Below are positions 28,556-64,000 of a stretch of 64,000 nt of DNA, one piece after another. The notes beneath the pieces were generated by a model. That model searched no databases, had not been told where the DNA came from, and saw nothing but the letters and a program-made list of their open reading frames with translations. Origin of the DNA: Terriglobia bacterium (GTDB lineage: Bacteria > Acidobacteriota > Terriglobia > Terriglobales > Acidobacteriaceae); contig CAVRTD010000002.1 of assembly GCA_963724105.1 (NCBI GenBank), positions 29,650 to 93,649 on the forward strand, written 5' to 3'. The translations under genes and the position numbers were made by a program. Positions within the stretch are counted from its first letter, which is position 1, and each line of letters begins with the position of its first letter.

Positions 28556-28650
28556 TTCATACGATGAATTCATGAGTCGGAGTGCAGAAGTGCTTCTGCA
28601 AGCTGAGAGCTGCTTCTGCACATTCGAACAAAAAATGGCGCGGGACAGAA

Positions 28651-30330: not shown

Positions 30331-30343
30331 TGGAGGTAGAAGC

Positions 30344-33910: not shown

Positions 33911-33912
33911 TT

Positions 33913-36819: not shown

Positions 36820-37991
36820 TGGATAACCTACTGAAGTTTCGCGCCGAAGTACTAAACTCTTGCGGAGCCAGCAGTTCAGAAACCCAGGAACTCCTTGCCT
36901 ATAGTGATAACCGCTTTGACCACGCAGGGCTGGCGGAGATCGTGTTTCCTCTTGCTGATGAACCTTTTGTGAAATCCTGGAAAGCCTATGGAGAAGAGGT
37001 TACAGCAGCGGGCACTTTCTCAATCCTTGCGAAATACCTCGTCCAGTTACGGTTTCCCATCAGGACAGGCATGAGTCAGGATCCTGATTATCTTGCGGCT
37101 ACCACCAGAGGCACAGGCTTTGCAACGGATGGGCCCCTGGGTCTTCCACTGATCGCACCAGAGAAATGCCACGTTGTCCTGCACCCGACTCCGGCCGGCC
37201 ACATACCATTGTTGATTGCTGAAGAGCGCATGGACTTCGTATTGCTGGTACAGGCACTTGCCAGGCGCAACGAACCGACTCCTATTCCGGCTTCCATGGG
37301 CGCCTGCATGGTCAGCGGCTACAACAACTGGGATCGAGTCTTCCAGGTTGTCCAGAAAGATGGAGCGGCACGATCCCTGAATCCTTCCGATTATCAGGAT
37401 CGTTTTATCATTCTTAGCAAAGGCTACTATAGCGGGGTGGAGCCTGCCGCTATGTCTCTCCAGGAACGCGAGTGGCGTGAACTATCCTTGATCATTCGGC
37501 GAGAACATGAGTCAACGCACTACTTTACGCGGCGGGTATTCTCCTCCATGCGTAATAATTTGCTCGACGAAATCCTCGCTGATTATTGTGGGGTTGTTAC
37601 AGCTACAGGCCGCTTCCTTCCAGACTGGATGCTCCGCTTCTTTGGCCTGGAACATTTTCCGCACTATCGTTCAGGCGCAAGGCTGGAGAACTATAAGGGT
37701 AAACCGGCGCTTTCCGCTGGCGCTTTTTTGGTTTTGCAAAAGCTCGTCAAGCAGGCGATTGACAACCTGGGCGCCATGAATGCCCCGATAGCAAAGAGTG
37801 ACTGGCAAAGCTCTCCATTCCCGCTGCTTGGGTTGCTGGCCTTGTCCAGGTTCACGCTGGAGGAGCTGGCTTCCGGCGACGCGCCCGATCTAATACAGGC
37901 TGAACTCTTGCGCCTGGAAACTGCCGGCATCGGCTCGCGTCGATCCATCAACTACGATCCACACACAACATCATTAGGCCAGGCTGGGTGA
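36819..37991 (+). CDS. unknown protein with HExxH motif, translationally coupled to the ABC2 gene
   Basis: 390 aa. The ATG shares a base with the upstream TAA (TAATG). The sequence REHESTHYFTRRVFSSMRNNLLDEILADY contains HESTH plus a downstream Glu, compatible with a gluzincin-like site. There is no signal peptide or TM. Confidence 0.5.
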   Translation: MDNLLKFRAEVLNSCGASSSETQELLAYSDNRFDHAGLAEIVFPLADEPFVKSWKAYGEEVTAAGTFSILAKYLVQLRFPIRTGMSQDPDYLAATTRGTGFATDGPLGLPLIAPEKCHVVLHPTPAGHIPLLIAEERMDFVLLVQALARRNEPTPIPASMGACMVSGYNNWDRVFQVVQKDGAARSLNPSDYQDRFIILSKGYYSGVEPAAMSLQEREWRELSLIIRREHESTHYFTRRVFSSMRNNLLDEILADYCGVVTATGRFLPDWMLRFFGLEHFPHYRSGARLENYKGKPALSAGAFLVLQKLVKQAIDNLGAMNAPIAKSDWQSSPFPLLGLLALSRFTLEELASGDAPDLIQAELLRLETAGIGSRRSINYDPHTTSLGQAG

Positions 37992-46702: not shown

Positions 46703-47992
46703 TTACTCCCAGGAAAGTACAGAAGGTAGTAATTCCGGTTTCGCCGCCCTAAGGAGTTGATAACCGATGCCCGCGAGGCCCTTGTGAAATGTAAGAGGGG
46801 TATTGTCATTGCTGCGACCGAATCCGTAGCGCCCCCTGGTGATGGCGCGGCGCGCAACGGAGTTTGCCAACAGGACGGCCTGTTGCTTATGGCGCTCGAT
46901 TCCAAGTTTGCGCGCAGCCTCAAGAAAAAATTCGACACGTCCCAAAGTCCCACAGCACGGAAAATCGATATGGCTCAGCGTGCCAGACTTAGCTGCTGCT
47001 CGAAGGCATCGGTCAATATCCGCGCTGACCTCCGCCTGATCGAGACAAGAGCTATTGAGCCTGCCAAGGCCAATTCCTGGAGCGCCATTGCACCAGCTAT
47101 TCCAGCATTGATAGCCGCCCTGCTCCCGGGGCAGCAGTAGATGCGGCCAATTCCCTTCATCCTCACAGTAAAGGCTGTTCTCATAAGCCAGGGCTTCCGC
47201 TGCAGCATCCCGAAAGCTTGACTCTCCCGTAATCTCAAAGAGCCGGCAGAGAGCTTGAATTATTCCCGCAGCGCCATGCGCGTATCCGGTTTGGCACTTG
47301 CCTGGTGAAGTTTCCCATGCCCTCAGACCAGACGAGGTAGTAATGCGGGCGCGGAGCAGATGTTTACCCCATAGGGCTGCCTGTTCGATCATCCACGGTT
47401 CGGGAGCAAGACTATGAAGTGATGCACAAACTAATGCGCAGCCAGCGGATCCTCCCATCAGATCGACTCCACGCGCATTAACGATTCTCTGGTGAGGAAA
47501 ACGGCGTGCAATTCGGATTGCGGCTGAAAGCAACTCCTCATCGCCCATAAACGTGGCGATTCGCGCAAGGGAGTAGATGATCGAAAATGATCCCGTTCCG
47601 GCGCCTACGCCATCCCGCGCAAGCCAATCATCAACCTGTGTCGACGAAAGAGTGCGCAGCGGCTGCACTACGGCGCAAACCAGTGACCGGTACTCAGTTT
47701 TTTCAGAGATGTGGTCTAAAGCGGCAAGAAACAAACAAATTCCGTATGTTCCACCATACAAGTCGTGGCCAGAGAACTCTCGTCCACCGGACCAAGGATC
47801 ATGTTGCAGACGCCCTGTCCACGGAGCTATTCCACCCTCCGCAAAACTGGGCGATTGGGACACGATCGCACCAATGGCTGCGGCTTCATCAAGCAGCAAG
47901 CAATGAGCCCGACTAGCTTCTTCCTGATGGACTTCTGACGCGAACTCATTACTGTCGCGTTTATGAGTAGGCAACTCGATGATAGTTTTCAT
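46703..47992 (-). CDS. lanC: LanC-type lanthionine cyclase with Cys-Cys-Gly zinc motif
   Basis: Start at MKTIIELP (47992); the track ORF is extended upstream. Motifs are GYAHGAAGI, NSWCNGAPGIGL and FPCCGTLGRVEF, the last at the position of the usual CHG. Repeated GxxG helices are also present (GGTYGICLFL, GLAGIGYQLL). Confidence 0.85.
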   Translation of the reverse strand: MKTIIELPTHKRDSNEFASEVHQEEASRAHCLLLDEAAAIGAIVSQSPSFAEGGIAPWTGRLQHDPWSGGREFSGHDLYGGTYGICLFLAALDHISEKTEYRSLVCAVVQPLRTLSSTQVDDWLARDGVGAGTGSFSIIYSLARIATFMGDEELLSAAIRIARRFPHQRIVNARGVDLMGGSAGCALVCASLHSLAPEPWMIEQAALWGKHLLRARITTSSGLRAWETSPGKCQTGYAHGAAGIIQALCRLFEITGESSFRDAAAEALAYENSLYCEDEGNWPHLLLPREQGGYQCWNSWCNGAPGIGLGRLNSSCLDQAEVSADIDRCLRAAAKSGTLSHIDFPCCGTLGRVEFFLEAARKLGIERHKQQAVLLANSVARRAITRGRYGFGRSNDNTPLTFHKGLAGIGYQLLRAAKPELLPSVLSWE

Positions 47993-48020
47993 AAGGACAG
48001 ATCCGCAAAAAAATCTGCGA

Positions 48021-49382
48021 TCACATCCGAGATTCAGTTTGGCCAGGTTTCCAGAAAGACACTTTCGGCCTCCACCTGGCGTCGGAGCCCGATGGTAGGC
48101 TCTTTGATTCGAAAATGTCACTTCCGCTTCGAAGGAGAATCGATGCAAGCCTTGTAGTCTCCTGAGAGATGGCTGGATCGATTGGCGCACCATCCGTCAA
48201 GTCAGACCAAAACGCACTTTTTTTGCGTAGATCTACATTCAACACAAAAAGGTATGCGGCCGAAGCCAAAACAAGGTGGTGATGGAACCCTTTCCATGAC
48301 CGTCCCTGGTAGCAGCCCAGATCCAGATCACGTTCAAGACAGCCCTGGTACTGCTCCTGATACGAACGATGCCGGCTCAACCGGAGGCACATGGTTTCAG
48401 TTGGCCGTTTGTGGAAACGCGCGAGGTAACAACGATAAGGTTGTGCCTGCCCGTCGGGCCAATCGACAACAAACCAGAGTCTTTGGAGGCTGCTACTTAT
48501 CCCATGTAGACCGGAATCCAGGAAGACCTCGCGAATTGCAAGCCGCGTTTGCCGTGAAGTACCTTCACGCGTAGCCCAGGAGCAGCGCGACCATTCTGCG
48601 GCCCCGATTTTTTGCATGATTTTTTCCAGCGTGTATGGATGCGGCTGCAGGCTCGAATTCCATTCAGGCGTGTTGGACTGAAAATCCCAGGCAATATTCG
48701 TTTTTGGATCCACTTCCAGAAAGAATTCCATTCCAGCGTGCAATAAGGCTGAACGAAAATCGGCGTCGTTGCCGTAAGCAGCATCGCCTACCAGCGGCTT
48801 GGGATGGAGCCCGTCACCGGTCACTTCCCGCAATAGTGCTAGCACAAGGGATGACCGTGAGGGAAAACATGCATCCTTGGGGACCCCGGACCGCGACAGT
48901 CTCGATGACTCGGCAGCCCAGTCTGGCGGGAGATACAGCCGTGCAGCAAGCGGCGCCGCGAACGATCCATCACTGGCCAGTATCTCCACGCTGATCTGGC
49001 AACGGGACTTCTTGCCATCCGCGCCACATCGCTGGTTTGATACGCCGACAGATTCATTCCCCTGCTTTGTCCATGCTCTCTCATTCACCACCCAGCGATC
49101 GACCGGTTCAATAGTGGGAATGATTGCTCTACGTATGCGCGTCCAAACCTGTTGATCGTCCCATGGGCTGTTTGCAATCGTCTGATGCAGGCTCTGGGAG
49201 TCTACTTGCAGCCGCTCGGCAAGAGGACGAATGAATTTTCTTCTTCCGGGCAGCAGCAGGCCTTCAATGTATCTGGCGGTGGCGACCCGCCGCTCCTGCC
49301 TGCCGATGCTTTCCAGCAGCGTGGAGAGATAGCGAGTCAGGTAGGGAATATTTTCTTTATATGTTGCCAGTTCCCACTTCAT
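48021..49382 (-). mobile_element. IS701-family-like DDE transposase gene, apparently degenerate, no terminal inverted repeats found
   Basis: Start MKWELATYKEN with RBS GGAGG. The sequence WVVNERAWTKQGNESVGVSNQRCGADGKKSRCQISV...ARLYLPPDWA...VGDAAYGNDADFR...GCYQGRSWKGFHHHLVLASAAYLF follows the IS701 DDE_5 layout. The first catalytic position reads N-E-R where I expect D-D-T (motif recalled from memory). Confidence 0.65.
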
Positions 49383-49452
49383 AAATTCACGACCTCCCCT
49401 TCCGACCCACATCATGGTTCCCGAATTTCCGCGGTCTGGGCGAACATAGCGT

Positions 49453-50535
49453 CTAAGCAGACGCCTTCCACAAGATCGGCGACCGCATTGCGAACTCTAA
49501 AACCTCATCCATCGACTGATCCTGAATGGGAACGGGAAGCGCCGAATGGCGCAGCCACAGGAGACGCCATGTTCCGGGATACCATTGGCGCAACCTCTCG
49601 ACCCCGCGCCACAACAGTCGCGAGAGGTACACCTCTTCAGGGTTGTTCAATCCAATCCGATTGGCAGTCATGTGAATGTGGCTTGACGTAATGGGCCAGT
49701 GGGCTTGCCGGGAAAGACCGCTGATCTCAGCAGCCAGGCCCCGGCTAATATTCACCAGGCTGGACGGCTCACAATTTTTGCTGGCACACACGGACTCAAG
49801 CTCTGCGATTACTAATTCTGTAATCTGCTTTTCCTGCCGCGAAAACACAAGATCAGCCTCCCGAATACAAGGCTCCAGCGAATCACCCCATGCCTCTGAG
49901 GCATACGCGGCGAGCCGGACAAAATCTTCTTCGTCACCCGCCAGTCCCCAGGCAAGTTGGAGGGCCAGACGCATCATCGCGGAGTTAATCCAGTCACGAC
50001 GGGAATTGCCGCGTTCATCCAGCATTTTCAGGATAGCCAGACTGGAGATGCAAAAAAGATCAATCGAGGCGCCGATATGGTCTGCGCCTCCATAGCGATT
50101 GATTTCAAACACAGGGGTAAACTGCCGCCATGAATTGTCCGCGTAGACACGACTAACGTCCGCTCGTGCTGCCGGATCAGTGGTTGCAATCGCCCGGTTC
50201 GTAGCCAGGATCTGGTCCTGAGCAACCGGCGCTTTAGAAGGATACTTGTCAAAAAAACCGGCAGCGCGCTTTTGTAGAACTTCCTCCGCGCGTCCACTGG
50301 TATTTTCATCTTTCAATCGCCAGCGCAAACGGAGATGAGGGCCTCCAAGCGAGTACCGGACAAAATAAAACCGGTCGATCACTCCCAGGCTAGCCAGTTC
50401 GAGCATGAGCGGCCACGCCAGTTCCCGCAACATTCTGTCGCGATCGGCATGATAGAACACGTGGTATGCGCGCCAGCGCAGCAATGAATCTGGGCACGTG
50501 CCACCATTAGATTGACCTATAAGTTGCGTTGCCAT
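49453..50535 (-). CDS. stand-alone LanB C-terminal (SpaB_C / thiopeptide-type) elimination-domain protein
   Basis: LLRWRAYHVFYHADRDRMLRELAWPLM...IDRFYFVRYSLGGPHLRLRWRL and the C-terminal SSHIHMTANRIGLNNPEEVYLSRLLW match the Lant_dehydr_C / TIGR03891-type pattern (W..Y...; FF.RY..GPHLRLR; H.h.NR). Confidence 0.8.
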   Translation of the reverse strand: MATQLIGQSNGGTCPDSLLRWRAYHVFYHADRDRMLRELAWPLMLELASLGVIDRFYFVRYSLGGPHLRLRWRLKDENTSGRAEEVLQKRAAGFFDKYPSKAPVAQDQILATNRAIATTDPAARADVSRVYADNSWRQFTPVFEINRYGGADHIGASIDLFCISSLAILKMLDERGNSRRDWINSAMMRLALQLAWGLAGDEEDFVRLAAYASEAWGDSLEPCIREADLVFSRQEKQITELVIAELESVCASKNCEPSSLVNISRGLAAEISGLSRQAHWPITSSHIHMTANRIGLNNPEEVYLSRLLWRGVERLRQWYPGTWRLLWLRHSALPVPIQDQSMDEVLEFAMRSPILWKASA

Positions 50536-52954: not shown

Positions 52955-53110
52955 TCAGCCAGAGCAGACGTTAGCGGAGCAGGATGCGATCGGGCAAGGT
53001 TCAAGAACGCCGCCGGAAACATCTTCCAGCGCCTGATCGGACAGTGGTTCAATCTCAACATCTTGTTTTTTTTCTGGAATTGCATTTGGATTGGTAGCTT
53101 TGTCAGACAT
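52955..53110 (-). CDS. lanA: lanthipeptide-type precursor A1 (51 aa), not in the ORF track
   Basis: Hand translation: MSDKATNPNAIPEKKQDVEIEPLSDQALEDVSGG|VLEPCPIASCSANVCSG*. RBS AAAGGAAAAAAC precedes the ATG. The leader is double-Gly type and the core has 3 Cys and 3 Ser. The 79-aa track ORF 52846-53085 is the wrong frame. Confidence 0.8.
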   Translation of the reverse strand: MSDKATNPNAIPEKKQDVEIEPLSDQALEDVSGGVLEPCPIASCSANVCSG

Positions 53111-53295: not shown

Positions 53296-53451
53296 CTACG
53301 CTAGGTCGCCAGAGCAAACATTTGCGGAACATGAAGCGATGGGGCAGCCACCGGAAGCATCTTCGAGCGACTGGTCGGAAAGTGGTTCGATCTGAACGTC
53401 ATCCTGTTTCTTTTCGGGGACTACATTTGGTTTATTGGGAGTGTTAGCCAT
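53296..53451 (-). CDS. lanA: lanthipeptide-type precursor A2 (51 aa), not in the ORF track
   Basis: Hand translation: MANTPNKPNVVPEKKQDDVQIEPLSDQSLEDASGG|CPIASCSANVCSGDLA*. RBS AAAGGAACAACCATC precedes the ATG. It shares the CPIASCSANVCSG core block with A1. Confidence 0.8.
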   Translation of the reverse strand: MANTPNKPNVVPEKKQDDVQIEPLSDQSLEDASGGCPIASCSANVCSGDLA

Positions 53452-53642: not shown

Positions 53643-56399
53643 CTACCTTGTTGCGGCTTGCTCATCGCGTTGACGTAACCGAGATGACTCCCGGCTGGAA
53701 AACACATCGAGCGAAAACATGGCGCGCTCATCCACAGGCGATTGCAATGCAACCGCATCAACCAGCAATTCAACCGCCCACCTTTGCCCTTTGGAATCTC
53801 TGGGCATCATCTCCGGTTCGGGCAATGTTTCCACCAGCACAAGGGACCCTTCGGCTGCGAGCGCGATGGAGTGCAGGATCGAGATGAACAATGGTGAGCT
53901 CAGGTCCAGATATTGCGGCTTGTGGTATTTTCCCCGCGGGAAAGAATTAAGCTTCTCAGCCACAAACAAACGGGTTGGAATCTCGAACTTCCGGAGGAAA
54001 CGATGCAGCCGCTCAAACGCCTCTGGGCTCCCAGGGTCTTCCAGAATGCGCCGCAGATCTAGAGCTGGAACACTCCAACTCTTGCGCATAAGCACTACAT
54101 TTCCGATGCGCGTCCGCTCGCGGACGGTGATGCCATCGACCTCTCGCTGTAAGCGTTCGGGATAGAGGGGAATCGTATCTGTTGGTCCGAACGCACACAA
54201 AAACTTCACCAGAGTTGGCAGGTAAGTGGAGCCAGCAAGGCCGATATAAGACGCCAGGTAGCGCTGTCCACTGCGATCCTGCAGCCTGGGCCATCCATCT
54301 TCACCCACTGTAACAAACAGCTCTGCCAAAGAAAGGCGCCGTTCGGGCGCTATATCCATATGGGTTGCCGGCAGCACCAGGACTTTTGGGGTTTGTGGCG
54401 CATGCACGTTGAGCGTGTCACCACTCACGCAATGAATGTCCAATATCTGCAAGCATTCGTCGTTATCCAAAATTACCGCTCGCCGCGCTAACCCGTCAGC
54501 ATACTGATGGCGGAGCGGAGCCGGCATCAACGGAGTGTAACGGCTGGACATCCGGCCCGTTCCTTCTTTCAACCGGTTGAGCACCCACAGAGAACCATCC
54601 GCTGTAGCCGGTTGGAGAAAAAGGCAGCCGCCTCCCTGGTACTTCTTGAATGCGTCAGGTATCTCGTCCAGGAGAAGGTTAAAACGGCTTATCGAGATTG
54701 TGCGGCCCTGCGCATCATCCATCCAACAATTGCGCAAAGATTCGCGGGCAGCAGTGCGTACCGATAGCAAATGATCCAGCACATCCAGACCCAGCGGATT
54801 CCAGGTTGAATGCTGCTCCTCAGTGGACCTGATCGCGGACTCATGAGAAACGTATTCCTGGAACAAATCCCGCACAGCGTCAAACGCACTGAGAAGATCC
54901 AGCCTGCAGTGCTTCCCTTTACTTTTTTCGAGAACAGAGCCAACGCTGAATAGAAGATCAAGGCGGCGGTCAAACAAGCGTGAGTATCGTAAAAGTGGCT
55001 CTGCGCTCCGTTGGGCCTGTTCCATGGCCGTCCTTCCAACACTCACGACTGGAAGACCCTTATCGGATTTGGGAGAACACCAAACATCCTGATAAATATC
55101 GTGCCCGGGAATATGCGACGCCGTTTTCGTATTGGTCGGGAGTTGAGCAATACGAGTGGCGCTGAACACCATTTCGTCCATCGTTTGCTGCATGCGCAAG
55201 AGCGTTTGTCCCGGTTCATTTGCGGAAAAAAGATTTCCTTCCAGAAGCACTAACCGCTCCAGAAGTTCAATGAAGTTTTGCAGCGCCGGGTCATGCGGCA
55301 ACAGCTGGAGCTTTTGCAGGACCATTTTCTCAAGGTGCCCTTCATCGGCGCTCCAGGGCAACGCCAGATACAGAAACCCCAAATCAATCAGACTGTCTAT
55401 TTCTTCTTTGATCGACTCGGAATGCGCATCCATTTCATCTTCGATCAGCTTAAGTAGCTCAACATAATTGAGCGGACCGCTAGCCAGAAGTGATTGCAGG
55501 CGCTGGACGAGAGGCCCCTGAAGCCTGGCGCGAACAAGTGACTCGCGGTAGTAACGGATCTCCTTGGTATCTTCGTCCACTCGATACTGCCCGGGACGGC
55601 GGTGAAGAGTCCGTCCGTCCTCGAGTTTCGAAACTGAATCGTTAATCGCTACCGAAAGCGTGCGCCGCCACGGTTCATAAAGACATAACGCATCGGTACA
55701 CCGGTCAAGAATGTGTCTACGTACGCGCACTAGAGAATGCTGATCCCATTCACCAGGCAACAATCTCAAAGGCTCCGAGCCGCCTTCCACGCGACACAAC
55801 CCGACCGGAGTGAAAGTCGAGAATGGAGACAGTTTGAGAGAAGCCCGGCTGGCGTAACGCAATACTGTCGCGGCCAGGCGTTTTTCCCGGCGACCATAAT
55901 CTTCCGGCGCTTTCACTTTCAAACGGCCGGACTCGCTGGCCACTGTATTGCTTGCCACTGCCAGCCCGCAGCGGAACATGGGATTATCAATCAGCCCAGC
56001 GACACAGTGATACTGCCTTGTTGTTTCATCTCCGTGGGCTTTTACAAACTCTTGCTTTTGATGAGCGAGGTTCTCTTCCAGCTCAATCACTTGTTCCGCC
56101 AGCGCCGGAGCGGCTTGTTTTATGAGCATCCAAACCAGCTTCGTGCGATAGCGGGTTAGTGGACGTCCATTAAAGCAATCACGCTTGACTTCCAGGAGAG
56201 CGTGTCGTTTCTCGGTCGGAGCATTATGAATAGCCGCGTGAAGCTGTTCAACAAGTTCATTACGAGCGTTGGATAAATTAGCTTCGAGCTTTGCTATCGC
56301 ATTCAGAATATCGCCCAACCGGCTGGAAAAATCCTCCATTGTGCTGGCGGGGAGTCCGCTCAATCGGGCTATAAGTAGGGCTGAATTGCTCGTCGTCAC
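53643..56399 (-). CDS. lanB: LanB-type dehydratase, N-terminal (glutamylation) part only, no fused elimination domain
   Basis: 918 aa. MTTSNSALLIARLSGLPAST..., KRDCFNGRPL and LKLSPFSTFTPVGLCRV follow the Lant_dehydr_N pattern. The protein ends without a SpaB_C-like region. Confidence 0.85.
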   Translation of the reverse strand: MTTSNSALLIARLSGLPASTMEDFSSRLGDILNAIAKLEANLSNARNELVEQLHAAIHNAPTEKRHALLEVKRDCFNGRPLTRYRTKLVWMLIKQAAPALAEQVIELEENLAHQKQEFVKAHGDETTRQYHCVAGLIDNPMFRCGLAVASNTVASESGRLKVKAPEDYGRREKRLAATVLRYASRASLKLSPFSTFTPVGLCRVEGGSEPLRLLPGEWDQHSLVRVRRHILDRCTDALCLYEPWRRTLSVAINDSVSKLEDGRTLHRRPGQYRVDEDTKEIRYYRESLVRARLQGPLVQRLQSLLASGPLNYVELLKLIEDEMDAHSESIKEEIDSLIDLGFLYLALPWSADEGHLEKMVLQKLQLLPHDPALQNFIELLERLVLLEGNLFSANEPGQTLLRMQQTMDEMVFSATRIAQLPTNTKTASHIPGHDIYQDVWCSPKSDKGLPVVSVGRTAMEQAQRSAEPLLRYSRLFDRRLDLLFSVGSVLEKSKGKHCRLDLLSAFDAVRDLFQEYVSHESAIRSTEEQHSTWNPLGLDVLDHLLSVRTAARESLRNCWMDDAQGRTISISRFNLLLDEIPDAFKKYQGGGCLFLQPATADGSLWVLNRLKEGTGRMSSRYTPLMPAPLRHQYADGLARRAVILDNDECLQILDIHCVSGDTLNVHAPQTPKVLVLPATHMDIAPERRLSLAELFVTVGEDGWPRLQDRSGQRYLASYIGLAGSTYLPTLVKFLCAFGPTDTIPLYPERLQREVDGITVRERTRIGNVVLMRKSWSVPALDLRRILEDPGSPEAFERLHRFLRKFEIPTRLFVAEKLNSFPRGKYHKPQYLDLSSPLFISILHSIALAAEGSLVLVETLPEPEMMPRDSKGQRWAVELLVDAVALQSPVDERAMFSLDVFSSRESSRLRQRDEQAATR

Positions 56400-56615
56400 A
56401 GAACTGCTCCAGAAACTGCGTTATTGAGCTTTACCTTCAGGGCTGTGTCGAGAACTTCCACATGATGCCGGCAGCTCACGAAATCTCGCAAAGTGGAAGC
56501 GGACGTGCGCGGCCGGCACAAATGCAGTCGATTCAAACAGGCAAAATTGGATGGAGAAATCGTTTCAGGAATTGGTTAAATCTCGCGCCAGGCAATGGCG
56601 GTGATCAAGCGCAGC

Positions 56616-56765
56616 TCACCCTAAGTCTGGAGGCCCACACAAGGGTGAACCAGTTTCAGTACCGCCTGAAACTTCCTCAAGAGCGGCGTCGGAAAGGGGT
56701 TCGATTTCAGCGTCTTTCCGGCTCTGAATTGACTTGCCAGGCTGTTTTTTTTCCTCGTTTGGCAT
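56616..56765 (-). CDS. lanA: third precursor A3 (49 aa) with the same leader box, different core
   Basis: MPNEEKKQPGKSIQSRKDAEIEPLSDAALEEVSGG|TETGSPLCGPPDLG*. Start at the internal ATG 56765 of track ORF 56616-56810, with RBS GAAGGGA upstream. Confidence 0.7.
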   Translation of the reverse strand: MPNEEKKQPGKSIQSRKDAEIEPLSDAALEEVSGGTETGSPLCGPPDLG

Positions 56766-56831
56766 TTTTTTATCCCTTCGTAATAGATTTATGGGGCCTT
56801 GTGGTCGCAAATGAAACGCTCGTTGATGGAC

Positions 56832-57854
56832 TTACACCCGCGCAAGCTCCTGCGCAGGCACAAGACTATGATCTTCTACCGCTTTAATCAGAAGATGGTG
56901 CACATAGGCCTCATGCAGAGGTGTTACCCCAAATTGATTCGCCATTCCGTGCAACATCTTGAACAGAGGCGGAAAGTTCACGTTCGTAGTGAACGGATCA
57001 ATCTGATGTTCGCCGGAGCCGGCAAAAGATTGCGTATAAGCTGACAATGCCGCAAAGGTCCGCAACCACGGCTCTACTTCCTGGGCGCCGCTGTTGCGCG
57101 CCCACTCTTCATCACTGAGCTGCGCCAGCTTTGTTCTGGCAGTGCTGGAACCGGCTTGGGCATCAAAATGTGCACGAATCTCCAACTCTTTGCTGGATTC
57201 GGAAATGAAAAACCGCAAAAGCCAATCGCGATGAAAGGCAAGATATTCTGTCGCGCTGGTTCGATCACCAAGGCCAGAAGCACCCAGAGCCGAGATCAGG
57301 CTTTTTGCCAACAGAGATTGCTTGCTGCCATCCGAAAGCTCGCCCTGCTCATCTACGGCGGTGAGGAACACGCCAGTTGTTGCCGCAAGGCAACGACAGG
57401 CAAGGGCGACAAAATTTTCGTCTTCGAGCCAGGGTGACGCAGGAAGCGACACGTAGCTGCGTCCATAGGTTGTGGCGAGAAAGTTACGATCGGCGAAATC
57501 AGAATCTACTTTGTCTTCAGCGTCAATGGGTGGGGCCTTGGGATTACTTACACGAGGATCAGCCGCCAGGTAAGTGCGCGCTTTCTCGATCCACTTTTCT
57601 ACGTGGCTGTGCAGCAAAGGCCTCAGTGAATCCACCACAGCCCGCTCACCGTGAAGCCGAATCTTGAGGTGCTCCCCACCACGCGCGTAACGCATAATCC
57701 AAAGCCAACAATCCCCATCTGGCCGGACGCCCTGCATGTCACGCCAGAACGGCACAATCCCTTGCTGCAACAGGTTGTCCACCAGGCCGCTGGCATAAAT
57801 ATTTGCGGTTAAGATTGGATCTGCCGAATTGAGTGAATTAAGCATGTCCTTCAC
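56832..57854 (-). CDS. third SpaB_C-like (LanB C-terminal-type) paralogue
   Basis: ILTANIYASGLVDNLLQQGIVPFW...CWLWIMRYARGGEHLKIRLHG and the C-terminal LFKMLHGMANQFGVTPLHEAYVHHLL are collinear with the SpaB_C pattern. Confidence 0.65.
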   Translation of the reverse strand: MKDMLNSLNSADPILTANIYASGLVDNLLQQGIVPFWRDMQGVRPDGDCWLWIMRYARGGEHLKIRLHGERAVVDSLRPLLHSHVEKWIEKARTYLAADPRVSNPKAPPIDAEDKVDSDFADRNFLATTYGRSYVSLPASPWLEDENFVALACRCLAATTGVFLTAVDEQGELSDGSKQSLLAKSLISALGASGLGDRTSATEYLAFHRDWLLRFFISESSKELEIRAHFDAQAGSSTARTKLAQLSDEEWARNSGAQEVEPWLRTFAALSAYTQSFAGSGEHQIDPFTTNVNFPPLFKMLHGMANQFGVTPLHEAYVHHLLIKAVEDHSLVPAQELARV

Positions 57855-57932
57855 TTCCTATGGATGGTGGAACTGCTCTACTCTGAACGCCCCGCGGATC
57901 AAACCAGCGACTTGTTACGAGCAAAGCGGAAA

Positions 57933-58472
57933 TCAGGCCACGGAAACGTTTTGAAAATGTTGCTCAGGCGCGGGCAAGGGAACGTACCCACCGAGATCGA
58001 CAACGACGGAACTGCGAACGACTTCAATCGATAGAACCAGCCGATGCTGATTACGGTGACTCTCAACAACGCCTTCAATCCCATCAAAAGGGCCACCAGT
58101 AATCCGCACTCTGGAACCAATCTCTGCATACTCGCACGGTTGCATCTGGTATCCAGACTTGACAGCTGATTGAATTGCGCTGATTTCGTGGTCAGGGATG
58201 ATAGCTGGAGATTTAGCAGTACCGAGAATACGTATGACGCCTGGGGTCAACAGGATGGGACCGCTACCCATAGCCTTGATGCGACAAAATACATATCCGG
58301 CAAATAATGGAAGCTGTATTTCCTTCCATCGATCAGACCAGCGCCTGCGTACAACATAAGAAGGAGCAAATGTCTCGTAATTCTTTTCCGACAGGAGTCG
58401 CGCAGCAGTGAATTCATGCTGGTACCGTACGTAGATCGCACACCATGCGCTGTCATACTGGCTGAGGTCCAT
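57933..58472 (-). CDS. specialised NusG paralogue (RfaH/LoaP/UpxY-like antiterminator), first gene of the operon
   Basis: Start MDLSQYDSAW with a strong RBS GAAGGAG. The NGN-like N-terminus is WCAIYVRYQHEFTAARLLSEKNYETFAP. The KOW motif is IGSRVRITGGPFDGIEGVVES. Confidence 0.8.
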   Translation of the reverse strand: MDLSQYDSAWCAIYVRYQHEFTAARLLSEKNYETFAPSYVVRRRWSDRWKEIQLPLFAGYVFCRIKAMGSGPILLTPGVIRILGTAKSPAIIPDHEISAIQSAVKSGYQMQPCEYAEIGSRVRITGGPFDGIEGVVESHRNQHRLVLSIEVVRSSVVVDLGGYVPLPAPEQHFQNVSVA

Positions 58473-58921
58473 ACCGTCTCCTTCGGTCAACGTGAGTTTG
58501 CCGATACAGATGAATCGCACACTCTTCACCTCAAGCGGATGGAAAACAGCAGGACGTAATCTTTGTATAGAGGTGTGAGGGAGCCACCGGTTGCGGCAAG
58601 GCAGGCTGCCGCCATTTTGAGTCCCAACTTCTTACTCATTCACTAACCCTTACCGGGCCAGTCACAGTGAGAATTAGCAATGCCATTGCCAAAGCATGCG
58701 TTCTATGAAGAACCGTGCTTTCCATTGTGCATTTTGATTCACAATGATTATGTTTGTGATGGTGATTCCCACTTTGAAATTATGGATCCGCTGCTCGTTC
58801 CGCTTTTAGTTGGAGTTCAACGACTATCATTTCCATTCTGGTTGACGATTGCTGCGGTGCCGGACAGGAACAACCGTAAAGGTGGCAAATTTAATTTTGT
58901 CCGACTTATCCTCAGCCAGGC

Positions 58922-58957
58922 ACGACTAAGGTGTCCGCCAGCGGAAAAATATGTCCA
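58922..58957. promoter_or_regulatory. tandem palindromes TGTCC-N6-GGA(A/C)A spaced 20 bp apart, in the long region upstream of the NusG-led operon
   Basis: TGTCCGCCAGCGGAAA (58922-58937) and TGTCCAGCGGTGGACA (58942-58957). The 3' part GTCCAGCGGTGGACACCTTT is repeated exactly at 63739-63758. Confidence 0.4.
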
Positions 58958-59068
58958 GCGGTGGACACCTTTCGGCGGCAATCGTGAGAGAAAGACCTTT
59001 GAATGGAAGCCGCCCGGGGTAAGATCGCATTAGAAGCTGCCGGTGGAGCGCGGTCCCGTGTAAAAGAA

Positions 59069-60331
59069 CTATTGGATGGGGGTTGACGGCGTGAATTTTG
59101 GAACCATAATCACGATGTCATATCCAAAAATAAGCCGCTCCAGCTCTTCATCAACTGGGCCAAGCGCTTTAAATCTCCGGCGAAGGCCGCGAAGATCGTA
59201 GAGAGTCCAGCCTTCCGGCAATCGATGGTCCACCAGCGGCTTAATGAAAGAAACCGCAGAACTTGTATCCTGTACCAGATCAAAATTCTCCAGTTGCGGT
59301 GGCTGGCCGGGCGCACCAAAACTGATCTCTGCTCCCTTCACTCCAATGATGTTGATATGAAGAGAGGTGGAATGATGGCCTTCTGCCAATTCAGCCACAA
59401 AATTGCCCAGATCGTCGTTATGTAGAGGATTAATCCCCTTATAAAGGTGGGCGGAGCCAAACTTGAGCAAGACTTTGGCGGGTTTTCCCTCAGCCCGCGT
59501 CTGGTCATCATAATAACGGGCGAACAACGCCTTCATCATTAGCGCCCGCTGAAGGTTGGAATCATAAGCTTCACCCTGCAGATATTTGTGGTAGATATCG
59601 CGGCTTTCGATGAAGGCATTCAGAATGGCTTGCGAAGCCGGATTCCCTTCCCGAGCCACCGAGTTCTTAAGTTCCAGAATCTCGCTGTCCGGCACAGACA
59701 GCATAAAAATATCGTTCACTTTCCCCGAAGCCACGGTCCGCGCATAGGCTTGATCATTTTCGCGGAACATCTGGCGTATTTTGGCAGCCGCCGCCTTGCC
59801 GGGATGAGAATTCAAGAGGCTCTGTAGCAAAAACCTGGACTCTCCGTAAAACTCCTGATCAAGCCCCCATATATGGAATTTTTCATTTTCCGCAGTATGG
59901 CTGCAATGGGCCAACAGATCTGTTTCCTCCTGAAGACGATAGAATGGGAGGGCGTCTGGAAATTCTTTCTGAAACTCAGCAACCTGGTGGCGTGAATCCG
60001 TGGAGCGGGCCCACTTCTCTAATTGGCCGGCCATCATTGGGCCGGTTTCAATTGCCATGGAATGAAACCCTTGCGGAACGGCAAGGTCACATATTGCAGA
60101 AGAGAACTCGGGGGTTTCCGCATTGCCGTGTTGTTCACCGATGAGCACAAACTGGGCGGAGGCAATGGCCTTGCGCAGAACCTCAGCTCCTGCGCCAGAT
60201 AAATGCCCATCCTTCAGGTTGAGATCATAGCGGTTCTCAAGAAGTTGTTTTCCGAGTTGTTCCTGCGCCAACATACATCCAAGGCCGGCAATTCCTAGAA
60301 ATACCACAGCCGCCAGTTTGGTGATCACCAA
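59069..60331 (-). CDS. secreted Tiki/ChaN/erythromycin-esterase-superfamily-like protein
   Basis: 420 aa with a signal peptide (AAVVFLGIAGLGCMLAQ). FVLIGEQHGNAETPEFSSAICDLAVPQGFHSMAIETG resembles the GE.H(G)..E...Gf...E N-terminal signature of that superfamily (recalled from memory). The gene follows lanKC by 80 nt. Confidence 0.45.
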   Translation of the reverse strand: MVITKLAAVVFLGIAGLGCMLAQEQLGKQLLENRYDLNLKDGHLSGAGAEVLRKAIASAQFVLIGEQHGNAETPEFSSAICDLAVPQGFHSMAIETGPMMAGQLEKWARSTDSRHQVAEFQKEFPDALPFYRLQEETDLLAHCSHTAENEKFHIWGLDQEFYGESRFLLQSLLNSHPGKAAAAKIRQMFRENDQAYARTVASGKVNDIFMLSVPDSEILELKNSVAREGNPASQAILNAFIESRDIYHKYLQGEAYDSNLQRALMMKALFARYYDDQTRAEGKPAKVLLKFGSAHLYKGINPLHNDDLGNFVAELAEGHHSTSLHINIIGVKGAEISFGAPGQPPQLENFDLVQDTSSAVSFIKPLVDHRLPEGWTLYDLRGLRRRFKALGPVDEELERLIFGYDIVIMVPKFTPSTPIQ

Positions 60332-60411
60332 TATCGTCCTCAGTTCGCAAGATAGCCAGTTCAGCGGGGATAACGGCCACCCTGGTCATCTCGAAAGGCA
60401 CGAAGCCCAGA

Positions 60412-63111
60412 TCAGGATCCGACGTGCATTGCAACCAGCGCCTGTTCTTCTTCCGAGAATAAAGTACCATCTCTTGCAAACAAGGAGTCAAGCATAAAAT
60501 CGTTTTGCTGATTTCCAAGCAGGCGGTTAAGAAATAGAGCAATGCCTGCGCTTCCTGTACCGAAATCACATGACAGCCTGAATAGTGAATTTCCGGGAAA
60601 TGCGATTCCCTTCCGTTCCACACGGAAATTCATTATTCCCTCTGCAAGTCTGGCAGCACTTTCCCGATACCGGGAGTGTGCGGTCAGGTCGTGCATGTCG
60701 AGAAGAAACTCGCCGATGCCTGCCAGGCCAGTGAATCGTCCTGCAAAAACCGCGTATTTCCGGTCGGTATCCAGATAGATCTTATCCAAAACCTGTTCAT
60801 AGCAGGATTCACCGAGCAGTCGGTAGTAGCGCGCCGTTGCAATCCCGATTCCAGCACTCCCGTGCTGCCAGTATGGATAGACCGGCGACGTTGATCCGGT
60901 TGACATGGGCCACGTAAGTCCCGCATCTTTATTTTGCAATCCGAAACTCAGATCAAAGTCCAAAGCACGCCGCCCAACATAAAGAAAGCGCTCATTCTTT
61001 GTTGCGAGATAGAGGTAGAGCAGGAACAGAGCAATGCCGGAAGATCCGCGGGCAAGGCCGAGAGGCGCACCTTCGCGTTCACCCCAGTAGCAGCCGCGTC
61101 CGTCTTCTTTACACTGCTCGACAAGGTGATTCCCGGCTTGCACGGCGTGCGCAAGGTAAACTCTGTCGTTCGTAGCCATCCAGAAACGCAGGTCTGCCAT
61201 CCCCCACCCGGAAACGCCATGGAAGAGATCGCAAGCATCAAAAGCCAGGGGATGTGTATGGACCTGGCGCATTGCAGTCTCTGCTTCTGCCTGCAACCCC
61301 ATTTCAAGCAGACTCCATGCAATTCCAGCGAGCCCGATATACAGACCTGGAGCATATGTCCCATGCGTCAAACGCTTGTTGCTGATCCACTGCAGAACAC
61401 GGGAGGGCACGCCTCCTGTGATTTTGTGCCATGCATAAGCCACACCACATGCCCCAAAAGCGAGGCTGAGCGGGTTGGTAGCAAAGAGCCTGGCATCGGC
61501 CGGAAACAGCCTATCTTCGCGTTCATACGTTACCGTACTCTTCCAGTGGTCGACGATGCGCTCCAACACGCAAGGGTAGTTCTCCCGCCTGAGTTCATGC
61601 ACGGGCTCCACTTCGACGCTGGAATCTTCATCCATCAGGCAACCGAGACGGGCGGGTGTTGTAGGCTGACCTGGATCATGATTCATCAATCCAATAATCA
61701 TGCTTGTGATTGATCTGGGCAGTCGAGAATCCTTGCGTATCGATTCCATCAGCTCACGAATCGCTTCTCTTTTAAGTTGAATGAGGCCATTCCAGGGAAA
61801 AAGGTAGGCAAACAGGACCGCTCCAAGCGAATAGTAATCACTTTCAATGTCGGCAGGCATACCCTGGAGTCGATTCGGCGAGACGAATCCAGGAGTAAAA
61901 AGATTGGTGGGACGATCAATCTCTTTCTGGTAAGCACCTTCGAAGTCGATAAGCTTCAGGGAAGTGCCGCCGGCCAATACCATCACATTATTCGCGGAGA
62001 GATCCGCGAAGACGATGCCACGGCTATGCAATACTTCGATCATCCGGATGAGATTCAGAGAGATTTCAACAAAGGTCCGCTGCCATTCGACATAGTCTGT
62101 CTGCAAAGGCCTGGTGCGGAGCAAAATATTGTGCGCCGCGGAGTAACGGCCCAGTACCATTCCGTCAATGTATTCTTCAACTAGGAACCAATGCTCCCAA
62201 TCCTGGAAGAGATCCACGGGTTGCGGGGCTATTCCTGTATCGGCGATGACTGTGAGCAGGCGGTGTTCCTTCTTGAGCAGTTCCACCGCATCGTAACCGT
62301 CAAACGATTCATTCACGAACGGCCGGGCTTCCTTGATCACGACGGGCTGCCGGGTGAGATGGTCAAACGCCTTATACACGCCTCCGGCATTGGAAAAATC
62401 AATTACACTTTCGATCGTATAACGCCCTTGCTTAAGAGTTGGGCTGGCTTCGTTGTTGTCCGCTGGCTCGTCTGGAGCCAGTGGACCACATACCCAGTCC
62501 GGCGTAATGGGATACGGAAGCCTCTGATCGGGGACTGAACTCCCGTCAGGGGTGATAAGAACGGGAACACTCTCGCCTTTTACATTCAGCTTCTCACGGA
62601 GGCGCATTCCACCGTATCGATAGAAAACAACGCCACTATCTTTATAACGGCGATCTGAGAGAATGTAGGGCCCCTGGAATCCCTTAAGTTCTTGACGCAG
62701 GGATTCAATCAGTTCCAGAAAGCAATGGTCATTTTGAGGGTAGATGGTAATGAATTTGGAAGATCCCCCTCGAGGGAAGTTTTTGCCGTTCACAAGCTGC
62801 AATACCCGCAGATCCAGGGAAAATTTAAACGTGGTGTCCTGACGCTGGAGGAGCAGTGCGCTCACGCGATCCAGCACTTCACGCGCATTTGCCAGCGAGC
62901 TGGAAACATGTATCTTCCAACCCTGGTATGGACAGAGATTTTGTTGTGAGGAGCAAACAAACCAGAGCTGTTGCCGGCGAATCTCCCATCCCCCTGACAA
63001 CCGAGACGAGACTAGGTCATAAAAATCCTTAGTGCGCGGCACATAGTAGTCAAATGTTTCGTCATAATCGCTTTGCACCAGGCTATAAAGCCCATATGCT
63101 CTGGTTCGCAT
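60412..63111 (-). CDS. lanKC: class III lanthipeptide synthetase (lyase - kinase - Zn-ligand-less cyclase)
   Basis: The lyase motifs are QGWKIHVSS and SKFITIYP. The kinase motifs are GGVYKAF..VVIKEA, FADLSANNVMV and KLIDFEGAY. The C-terminal LanC-like repeats (GSSGIALFL, YWQHGSAGIGIA, CDFGTGSAGIALFL) lack the WC and CH zinc ligands. The probable start is MRTRAYG (63111, RBS GAAGGGA); the track gives a TTG at 63132. Confidence 0.85.
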   Translation of the reverse strand: MRTRAYGLYSLVQSDYDETFDYYVPRTKDFYDLVSSRLSGGWEIRRQQLWFVCSSQQNLCPYQGWKIHVSSSLANAREVLDRVSALLLQRQDTTFKFSLDLRVLQLVNGKNFPRGGSSKFITIYPQNDHCFLELIESLRQELKGFQGPYILSDRRYKDSGVVFYRYGGMRLREKLNVKGESVPVLITPDGSSVPDQRLPYPITPDWVCGPLAPDEPADNNEASPTLKQGRYTIESVIDFSNAGGVYKAFDHLTRQPVVIKEARPFVNESFDGYDAVELLKKEHRLLTVIADTGIAPQPVDLFQDWEHWFLVEEYIDGMVLGRYSAAHNILLRTRPLQTDYVEWQRTFVEISLNLIRMIEVLHSRGIVFADLSANNVMVLAGGTSLKLIDFEGAYQKEIDRPTNLFTPGFVSPNRLQGMPADIESDYYSLGAVLFAYLFPWNGLIQLKREAIRELMESIRKDSRLPRSITSMIIGLMNHDPGQPTTPARLGCLMDEDSSVEVEPVHELRRENYPCVLERIVDHWKSTVTYEREDRLFPADARLFATNPLSLAFGACGVAYAWHKITGGVPSRVLQWISNKRLTHGTYAPGLYIGLAGIAWSLLEMGLQAEAETAMRQVHTHPLAFDACDLFHGVSGWGMADLRFWMATNDRVYLAHAVQAGNHLVEQCKEDGRGCYWGEREGAPLGLARGSSGIALFLLYLYLATKNERFLYVGRRALDFDLSFGLQNKDAGLTWPMSTGSTSPVYPYWQHGSAGIGIATARYYRLLGESCYEQVLDKIYLDTDRKYAVFAGRFTGLAGIGEFLLDMHDLTAHSRYRESAARLAEGIMNFRVERKGIAFPGNSLFRLSCDFGTGSAGIALFLNRLLGNQQNDFMLDSLFARDGTLFSEEEQALVAMHVGS

Positions 63112-63226
63112 ACATAATCCCTTCGTGCTCAATACTTGTAGCGAATCCTAAATACAATTTTGCGGCCGGCGATCTGGCGCCGAATATTCAACCTTGCTCC
63201 TGTTTTTCATTTCCAATTCCTGCAAA

Positions 63227-63263
63227 CCGTTCCGAACGATTGCCAGCAAGAGGTTCAGAACGG
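63227..63263 (-). terminator. imperfect hairpin after the class III precursor gene (attenuator candidate)
   Basis: CCGTTC-c-GAAC ... GTTC-a-GAACGG gives 10 paired bases with one mismatch pair and a 15-nt loop. On the minus-strand RNA it starts 15 nt after the TAA and is followed by UUUGCAGG. Confidence 0.4.
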
Positions 63264-63277
63264 TCGCTAGAATCGAT

Positions 63278-63418
63278 TTACTCATGATGAAGTGGACTGG
63301 CCTCTTCTGCTTGTACCGTAGGACAAATGCCGCTCGCTGTACTCATCAACATCTCTTCTCCAGCTATAACGTCCGGGGCCCATGTGGTCAACTTTTGCAG
63401 CGCAAGGATGTTACCCAT
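63278..63418 (-). CDS. class III lanthipeptide precursor (46 aa), not in the ORF track
   Basis: Hand translation: MGNILALQKLTTWAPDVIAGEEMLMSTASGICPTVQAEEASPLHHE*. A strong RBS AGGAGAAAAATCT precedes the ATG. ILALQKL matches the class III leader ILxLQ box. STASGIC is a Ser-x-x-Ser-x-x-Cys unit. Confidence 0.75.
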   Translation of the reverse strand: MGNILALQKLTTWAPDVIAGEEMLMSTASGICPTVQAEEASPLHHE

Positions 63419-63716
63419 AGATTTTTCTCCTGATTTGAGATGCGTGAAAATGCTTTGCAGCCTACTTTTTCTGCTATGGCCAGGAGATATGCAAGAAAAT
63501 AGCCATTCTTATCGATGCAGGCATGGAGGTAGCTCAAACTACAACCGGAAATAATCATCACCCGCTGGTTACGATGCTTCAGAACCGCTCTTATCGCGCG
63601 GCAGCAGTTGGATAAAACTCGCTTCGTTCAAGCTGTTCCGTTTCGGAAAATTGCCGCAAATTTTACGAAAAGAAAAATTACCGCGAGCGTTTATTGCAGG
63701 AGGAAAGCGTTACCTC

Positions 63717-63753
63717 TGTCCGCAGGTGGACAACCAGCGTCCAGCGGTGGACA
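63717..63753. promoter_or_regulatory. tandem palindromes TGTCC-N6-GGACA / CGTCC-N6-GGACA spaced 21 bp apart, upstream of the class III precursor operon
   Basis: TGTCCGCAGGTGGACA (63717-63732) and CGTCCAGCGGTGGACA (63738-63753), about 300 nt upstream of the ATG at 63418. The layout matches 58922-58957. Confidence 0.4.
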
Positions 63754-64000
63754 CCTTTTGCCGGGCGATTTACGGTTTTTCCAGTGGACGAACAGCATTA
63801 TTCCACGGCATATTAGAGCCCGTGCACTTAAGCGAACTTCGGATCGGATGGCCTAATTGTTTTGCTGGGATAAATTGTTCAAGACTTCACAGAGTTTCAT
63901 ATCGGTAAATTTCATAAGTTACGTGGTTCTGAATTGGCCAGACAAGTGCATCATTCATGGTTTTCTGCATTCATGCATTGCGGGGCAGCCGAGCCAGTAC

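Follow-up and report, generated by a model that had tools for sequence, protein, structure and literature searches.

A probable sigma-54-controlled class III lanthipeptide operon encoding an acidic-tailed precursor in a Terriglobia bacterium

The stretch of DNA analysed here comprises 64,000 nucleotides of a Terriglobia bacterium (Acidobacteriota; GenBank assembly GCA_963724105.1, contig CAVRTD010000002.1, positions 29,650 to 93,649 of the forward strand) and is referred to below as the window. Near its right-hand end, on the minus strand, a small gene that we call lanA stands directly ahead of a large gene, lanKC. From their sequences and those of their relatives, the two would very probably constitute a functional class III lanthipeptide operon, in the order lanA then lanKC, of a 'Candidatus Angelobacter'-like member of the Terriglobia, and we extend the same judgement, jointly, to its control by sigma-54. 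The genes and elements concerned are the following.

60412-63111, minus strand: lanKC, predicted class III lanthipeptide synthetase, 899 amino acids from the ATG at 63111 (Pfam, NCBIfam, PDB and zinc-site alignments)
about 60499-61374, minus strand: zinc-less cyclase domain of LanKC (LANC_like)
about 61666-62391, minus strand: kinase domain of LanKC (Pkinase)
about 62452-63015, minus strand: lyase domain of LanKC (RamC_N)
63214-63275, minus strand: long hairpin with no U-tract, beginning 3 nt past the lanA stop codon (local fold)
63278-63418, minus strand: lanA, predicted class III precursor, 46 amino acids (reading of the open reading frame, public gene calls, family conservation)
63426-63431, minus strand: ribosome-binding site of lanA, AGGAGA, 7 nt before the ATG (direct reading)
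63490-63505, minus strand: sigma-54-type -24/-12 promoter, TGGCTATTTTCTTGCA, 87 nt upstream of the lanA ATG
63718-63731 and 63739-63752, no strand assigned: enhancer (upstream activating sequence), two GTCC-N6-GGAC palindromes 21 bp apart (motif enrichment)
63935-63950, plus strand: weaker sigma-54-like element, TGGCCAGACAAGTGCA, pointing to a divergent ADOP gene

The minus-strand translation of 63278-63418 is MGNILALQKLTTWAPDVIAGEEMLMSTASGICPTVQAEEASPLHHE. Its leader (residues 1-25) carries ILALQKL at positions 4-10, of which ILALQ occupies 4-8, and is followed by the ring motif S26-T-A-S29-G-I-C32 and by a 14-residue tail, P33-E46 (PTVQAEEASPLHHE), with a charge of -3. No further in-frame start lies upstream of the ATG, and lanKC follows 166 nt downstream on the same strand. 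An LxLQ-type box, an S-(x)2-S-(x)2-5-C core and an adjoining LanKC on the same strand, all of which are found here, are the marks of a class III precursor, the motif definitions being taken from PMC7268733 and PMC8960859. In a six-frame scan of all 64 kb for small open reading frames (ORFs) that combine an [ILV][LF]x[LIM]Q box with an S/T-xx-S/T-x(2-5)-C core, lanA was the only match, bar one obvious chance hit. A first-pass annotation of this DNA had proposed the 46-residue ORF as a class III precursor, and the proposal is borne out both by direct reading of the ribosome-binding site, leader box and core and by their conservation in about 40 loci. The same annotation had called the gene unannotated, which holds at most for its function, the identical 46-residue protein being present, although nameless, in the NCBI, ENA and Logan gene calls. 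The same DNA was recovered in no fewer than five independent assemblies, so the sequence is not an assembly artefact. Searches of lanA against the Pfam and NCBIfam precursor models (e.g. SapB/AmfS-type) gave no match at E <=1e-2 (0.01), and the subfamily to which it belongs is without a curated model. A peptide homology search with the 46-residue sequence returned only the query itself and one or two near-identical calls; since the peptide is too short for such a search, its family was recovered by scanning the DNA beside LanKC homologues.

More than 2,600 relatives of LanKC were found at E <=1e-20, and the DNA adjoining LanKC was scanned in 165 fetched loci, which are identified by L numbers where necessary. 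The nearest relatives are 51-67% identical to the window LanKC, and those with names come from "Candidatus Angelobacter", Acidobacteriia or Terriglobales metagenome-assembled genomes. Each locus with a LanKC at least 50% identical (about 40 Terriglobia loci) has one small precursor gene directly upstream on the same strand. Among 37 distinct orthologous precursors from these loci, the leader before the first Ser measures 24-25 residues and the core never departs from S-x-x-S-x-[IVM]-C; in 30 peptides the Cys is followed by Pro, and in 32 there is a single Cys. Their tails are 11-17 residues long, have a net charge of -2 to -4 in 30 of the 37, and in the same number of peptides end in F-[EQK]-[MLIT]-[EQDN], typically FEME, FQME or FELD. 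The window peptide ends in L-H-H-E, retaining a hydrophobic residue at -4 and the terminal Glu, and the tail of its closest relative (L005, LanKC 67% identical) ends in L-Y-V-A. All related loci examined have orthologues with the same box and core in the corresponding position, which supports the precursor assignment far beyond chance. Because it is conserved across the orthologous precursors, the acidic tail is a family trait; judged by this conservation it is under selection, and it is a hallmark of the whole Terriglobia subfamily, not a quirk of the window locus. The pairing of a single ring motif with an acidic tail, which had been singled out as unusual, is therefore so only in part: the tail is real, but it belongs to the subfamily as a whole, and single-motif class III peptides were already known. 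Loci with LanKCs of 48% identity or less have multi-ring precursors that end in Trp, and are without the sigma-54 promoter and the regulator described below.

The lanKC reading frame spans 60412-63132 and has an alternative TTG start at 63132, which would give a protein of 906 residues. The ATG at 63111 is the likely start; a GAAGGGA ribosome-binding site stands before it at 63118-63124, and it agrees with an 899-residue public gene call (P0001) and with the N-termini of homologues. Pfam found the three domains expected of such a synthetase by the first-pass annotation, namely RamC_N at residues 40-227 (190 bits), Pkinase at 248-489 (61 bits) and LANC_like at 587-878 (88.5 bits). With NF038151, the NCBIfam equivalog for class III, the protein scored 753.2 bits against a cut-off of 575 over model positions 3-833 of 833, and with NF038150, the class IV equivalog, 574 bits against a cut-off of 650, which is a failure. 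Its best PDB matches were the class III LanKCs 8sao, 8sam, 8sap and 9wj0 (E 1e-75 to 1e-77, all three domains). Across 22 family members there is no variation in the motifs QGWKIH, VIKEARP (K260), DLSxNN (D370/N375) and IDFE, and ThurKC-type structures can be aligned with QGWKIH and with the kinase motifs. Zinc-binding columns were located by aligning the stand-alone LanC encoded elsewhere in the window (46703-48193) to LicM2 (6st5), by comparing the LanKC family profile with this LanC by hhalign, and by a MAFFT alignment of LanKC cyclase domains with five stand-alone LanCs. The correspondences are as follows.

LanC AHG: ARG in the window LanKC; active-site acid position
LanC WC.G: WQHG in the window LanKC; zinc ligand gone
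LanC CCG/CHG: FTG in the window LanKC, within GRFTGLAG; zinc ligands gone

The three zinc-ligand positions are thus Q, F and T in LanKC versus C, C and C in the stand-alone LanCs of the same alignment. Because all three ligands are gone, the assignment of the synthetase to class III and not class IV is confirmed at the level of alignment. The first-pass annotation had arrived at this class from two motifs, of which only one was correctly placed: WQHG is the true equivalent of WCxG, whereas CDFG was misassigned, the SCDFGTGSAG segment aligning with the last GxxG repeat of LanC and the CHG equivalent being the F-T-G of GRFTGLAG.

The -24/-12 element ahead of lanA (consensus TGGCA-N7-TTGC[AT]) recurs in equivalent form in each of the 33 tabulated loci, at 56-99 nt upstream of the precursor, with positions T1, G2, G3, T13, G14 and C15 invariant. 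The background of the pattern is 5e-4 per nt per strand, corresponding to a binomial P of about 3e-49 under a naive model, the loci not being independent. Farther upstream, the GTCC-N6-GGAC palindrome, which is matched four times in the window (0.7 expected), is enriched more than 100-fold in the upstream regions of the clade, with 56 matches in 14.7 kb distributed over 28 of 30 loci, often as pairs 20-21 bp apart. It is presumed to be the binding site of the adjacent NtrC-type activator. Neither a sigma-70 promoter for lanA nor a canonical terminator behind the gene turned up in a simple scan for such signals. The promoter and enhancer had been missed in the first-pass annotation, from whose view the module that follows was hidden by the end of the window.

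Just past that end, on the same contig, lies a divergent operon for an ADOP duplicated permease, an NtrC/AtoC-type sigma-54 response regulator and a histidine kinase. The ADOP gene starts about 140 nt beyond the window, and its product scores 727 bits with TIGR03434 (cut-off 622). The regulator, of 466 residues, has receiver, Sigma54_activat and HTH_8 domains, and the kinase has two transmembrane helices with only 12 residues between them. Wherever enough flanking sequence of a clade locus is available, permease and regulator adjoin it, also in L010, L011, L023 and L100, where they stand in another, co-directional gene order; because adjacency survives this rearrangement, it is suggestive of a functional link and not of inherited synteny. 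In 13 of 28 loci, ADOP is preceded at 94-175 nt by an element similar to the weaker, plus-strand one; within the 300 nt searched the count is 14 of 28, where about 4 would be expected by chance. In public assemblies of the same organism, ADOP is split into two ORFs in one (L001, 6895-9329) and lanKC is split in another (L002, 10308-13008); these are probably assembly indels, not pseudogenes, both genes being intact in other assemblies.

A scheme for the operon can be drawn from these observations, in which the biosynthetic steps follow the known class III mechanism, and the regulatory steps assign functions to elements visible in the sequence. The N-terminal ILALQKL helix of the precursor would be bound by LanKC, whose kinase domain would phosphorylate Ser26 and Ser29, possibly also Thr27, Thr34 and Ser41, and whose lyase domain would remove the phosphate to leave dehydro-residues. 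The zinc-less cyclase would then join Cys32 to dehydroalanine (Dha) 29, giving a lanthionine, or a labionin if a second Michael addition follows at Dha26. For the unmodified precursor the calculated monoisotopic mass is 4889.375 Da, and the loss of two water molecules would lower it to 4853.354 Da, that of five to 4799.322 Da. The predicted product is a small N-terminal ring with a 14-residue acidic tail, from which the leader would be cut off by an unlinked protease. Transcription would start from the sigma-54 promoter at 63490-63505 and require the neighbouring NtrC-type regulator, bound to the paired sites at 63718-63752 and under the control of the histidine kinase with its 12-residue outer loop. 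The ADOP permease, of MacB/FtsX type and encoded in one divergent operon with the kinase, is a likely exporter, immunity factor or co-sensor. Promoter and enhancer of the same type would also drive a neighbouring split-LanB cluster led by an UpxY-like gene, which has the following features.

58932-58966, no strand assigned: second enhancer upstream of the UpxY-like gene, comprising GTCCAGCGGTGGAC and, 21 bp off, a partner with one mismatch
58676-58691, minus strand: second sigma-54-type promoter, TGGCAATGGCATTGCT, ahead of the UpxY/NusG-like gene
57933-58529, minus strand: UpxY/LoaP-like NusG paralogue (antiterminator), head of the split-LanB cluster (NF033644, 110 bits)
56832-57854: Lant_dehydr_C, split-LanB cluster
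56616-56810, 53296-53451 and 52955-53110, minus strand: three GG-leader precursors between the split-LanB genes
53643-56399: Lant_dehydr_N, split-LanB cluster
49453-50535: second Lant_dehydr_C, split-LanB cluster
46703-48193, minus strand: stand-alone LanC, split-LanB cluster

A 20-nt core, AAAGGTGTCCACCGCTGGAC, is identical between the second enhancer and that of lanA, and the enhancer and promoter also precede the UpxY-like gene in L166-L169, including genomes without LanKC. Because both clusters carry the same type of enhancer and promoter, a shared sigma-54 regulon is the best account of their adjacency, and the class III operon and the split-LanB cluster probably form one regulon. The presence of a class I-like system next to the class III genes, to which the first-pass annotation had drawn attention, would thus be more than coincidence. 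The three GG-leader peptides share the leader end IEPLSDxxLExxSGG and have Cys-rich cores, e.g. CPIASCSANVCSG. In the stand-alone LanC the third motif is Cys-Cys-Gly, giving three Cys ligands, a set that we take to resemble that of ProcM-type enzymes.

Several observations weigh against the reading of this locus as a functional, sigma-54-controlled class III operon. No leader peptidase was identified; the genes for permease, regulator and kinase fall beyond the 64-kb window, their sequences having been taken from that contig as it stands in public assemblies; and the loop by which the regulator would contact sigma-54 reads GAFTDA, where the canonical sequence is GAFTGA. The cyclase domain raises a more specific doubt. 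At the position of the His of the LanC active-site acid, the window LanKC has an Arg (GLARGSSG, about 61020-61040), the only one in the set, whereas the His is retained in about 105 of 120 members of the family, so that cyclase competence is not guaranteed. Moreover, at least seven sister loci encode an extra zinc-type LanC (WC.G, CCG) that overlaps or immediately follows the lanKC stop, which may hint that the LanKC cyclase is not always sufficient; the window locus has no such extra LanC. Sister loci that combine a class III synthetase with a class I-type cyclase in this manner include L104 (7709-8980), L166 (5981-7258), L008, L086, L091, L096 and L103. On this evidence the cyclase could be inactive or insufficient, leaving LanKC to catalyse dehydration only, and the ring would form spontaneously or through a zinc-dependent LanC such as that at 46703-48193, as a lanthionine and not a labionin. 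The location of this LanC in a co-regulated neighbouring cluster speaks for such a division of labour, but the gene is 12 kb off and past a transposase gene, the remainder of the cyclase domain is well conserved, with the LANC_like score given above, and the His in question is not conserved across class III generally, ThurKC-type structures having Asp-Gly there. We consider an inactive or insufficient cyclase rather improbable. A cross-link of the noursin kind, in which His44 or His45 would add to a dehydrobutyrine derived from Thr27 or Thr34 to give a metal-binding histidinobutyrine, is very improbable. The tail does have a His-His pair, Thr27 and Thr34 are available in core and tail, and LanKC enzymes that make His-to-butyrine links exist (PMC10206099). 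However, the noursin His lies inside the labionin ring in the frame S-x3-S-T-x2-H-x3-C, and this frame is not found in lanA, whose His residues are 12-13 residues past the Cys and whose S-T-A-S-G-I-C core contains none; most tails of the family lack His, although other parts of the peptide are conserved; and cyclase domains of the NorKC type form a separate Actinobacterial cluster. That the synthetase might be a class IV LanL, or the small ORF a chance reading frame, has a negligible probability: the class IV model does give 574 bits, and kinase and lyase domains are common to both classes, but that score fails its cut-off where the class III model is passed, the missing zinc ligands have already refuted the idea by alignment, and an ORF whose ribosome-binding site, promoter and position are conserved in about 40 loci is hardly fortuitous.

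The role of the product is a separate question. Class III peptides such as SapB act as morphogens rather than antibiotics. The lanA peptide might likewise be mainly a signal, sensed through ADOP and the intramembrane-type kinase and, by way of the regulator, autoinducing its own promoter together with the split-LanB cluster, in a loop that would be comparable to nisin with NisRK or to Bce-type sensing modules. This alternative, which we hold to be doubtful, is favored by the persistent linkage of the permease, the minimal-loop kinase and the regulator to lanA-lanKC, by an enhancer that is common to a second cluster for peptides that are made by ribosomes and then modified post-translationally (RiPPs), and by a conserved C-terminal motif, as expected of a ligand recognised by a receptor. 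The basis of the argument is gene neighbourhood, however; Acidobacteria have ADOP paralogues in great number, no ATPase partner was seen, and the module would fit equally well as a system for export or immunity that answers to an unrelated signal. The broader proposal, that FEME-tail peptides generally are secreted signals whose tail is read by ADOP and the kinase, with the NtrC-type activator and sigma-54 mediating both autoinduction and co-induction of the split-LanB cluster, seems to us unlikely; were it true, a soil phylum that is largely uncultured would have a communication circuit based on a lanthipeptide and wired through sigma-54.

As a class III lanthipeptide operon, the locus resembles the labyrinthopeptin/LabKC and curvopeptin/CurKC systems of Actinobacteria in its tri-domain zinc-less enzyme, (I/L)LxLQ box, S-xx-S-x(n)-C motif and lack of a clustered leader protease, and the biosynthetic chemistry is expected to be standard. 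It is unlike them in its acidobacterial host, its x2/x2 ring spacing, its single ring joined to a conserved acidic tail (11-17 residues in the subfamily), its sigma-54 and enhancer control and its ADOP linkage, and in having the precursor upstream of lanKC, where many Streptomyces loci have it downstream. Single-motif class III peptides are known but less common (bacinapeptins/paenithopeptins, PMC8960859; noursin, PMC10206099), and the former source sets them against the usual two or three motifs. Those peptides likewise have a core with a single S-(x)2-S-(x)2-5-C motif, but they come from Firmicutes or Streptomyces and are matured by M16B or S9 peptidases, noursin having in addition its intraring His cross-link; the available text of the two papers describes neither a conserved F-E-M-E-type tail nor sigma-54 control. 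The ThurKC-type enzymes (8sao, 8sam, 8sap) and 9wj0 are distant from the window LanKC, with cyclase matches of 58-88 bits and differences at the former zinc and acid residues. In placing a lanthipeptide operon beside a response regulator or two-component system, the locus is comparable to SapB/RamC-RamR, nisin-NisRK and BceAB-BceRS, and Bce modules, too, pair an FtsX-type permease with a histidine kinase of the minimal-loop kind. Unlike RamR, NisRK and Bce, the regulator here would be an enhancer-binding protein that works with sigma-54 at a -24/-12 promoter, and the permease is an orphan duplicated ADOP. Our literature search found no work on LanKC or class III lanthipeptides in Acidobacteria or Angelobacter, none characterised from Acidobacteriota, and nothing relevant that linked a lanthipeptide or lantibiotic with sigma-54 or rpoN, and the stored version of the RODEO supplement lists neither an Acidobacteria entry nor a peptide with a FEME tail. 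Within the literature searched, the tail motif, the sigma-54 enhancer control and the linkage to ADOP and a two-component system are not described, and the subfamily is uncharacterised. The locus stands for a large soil-metagenome subfamily. Its predicted product is compact, one ring with a conserved acidic tail, and its putative regulatory switch of enhancer, sigma-54 promoter and cognate two-component system is readable and probably extends to a second RiPP cluster. Such a system should be tractable for heterologous production, and an activated form of the regulator may offer a way to awaken silent acidobacterial clusters.

The spacer between lanA and lanKC holds the hairpin at 63214-63275. 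Attenuators and transcript-stability elements are common between lanA and modification genes, and the hairpin may be one or the other. Comparable hairpins after the precursor stop in about 12 of 31 related loci are suggestive only; the overall fold of the spacer was no better than that of shuffled sequences (z = -0.28), and an Rfam scan of 56000-64000 gave nothing meaningful. On the other side of lanKC lies one more gene.

59069-60331, minus strand: orf419, 80 nt downstream of lanKC, a signal-anchored protein of erythromycin-esterase fold

The AlphaFold2 (AF2) model of its product has a predicted local distance difference test (pLDDT) score of 90.8, and Foldseek matched it to EreC (6xcs, E 1e-11) and 3b55 (E 5e-13); GE-x-HG and several His and Glu residues are invariant in 32 homologues. 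The gene follows LanKC in L005, L166 and L167 and may be co-transcribed with lanKC, but where LanKC is absent (L168, L169) it stands before the UpxY/LanB cluster. Because it also flanks a LanB cluster in genomes without LanKC, it is doubtful whether it belongs to the class III system. We rejected it as a leader peptidase or core partner of class III, in view of this distribution and of its fold; a role as a hydrolase or in immunity is possible.

Within the split-LanB cluster, a DDE_5 transposase ORF (48021-49415, minus strand) overlaps the 5' end of the LanC gene and lies between it and Lant_dehydr_C, a position that it also occupies in L168 and L169. UpxY-like homologues are found directly after lanKC in several sister loci (L094, 7758-8315; L117, 7740-8369; L095, L089, L136 and L093), and there they are followed not by LanB genes but by unrelated metabolic genes (aminotransferase, aldolase, HSP90). 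Farther off, the plus strand of 28582-37991 encodes an outer-membrane efflux protein, an HlyD-like protein, a C39-peptidase ABC transporter, a second ABC transporter and a DUF7005 protein. The first-pass annotation had reported a nitrile-hydratase-like leader peptide (NHLP) system in the vicinity, and it is probably this set that was meant; no nitrile-hydratase-like leader was found, and the peptides nearby have GG-type leaders. Located 25 kb away, the C39-ABC/HlyD/outer-membrane efflux set may serve in the export of GG-leader peptides, possibly those of the split-LanB cluster.

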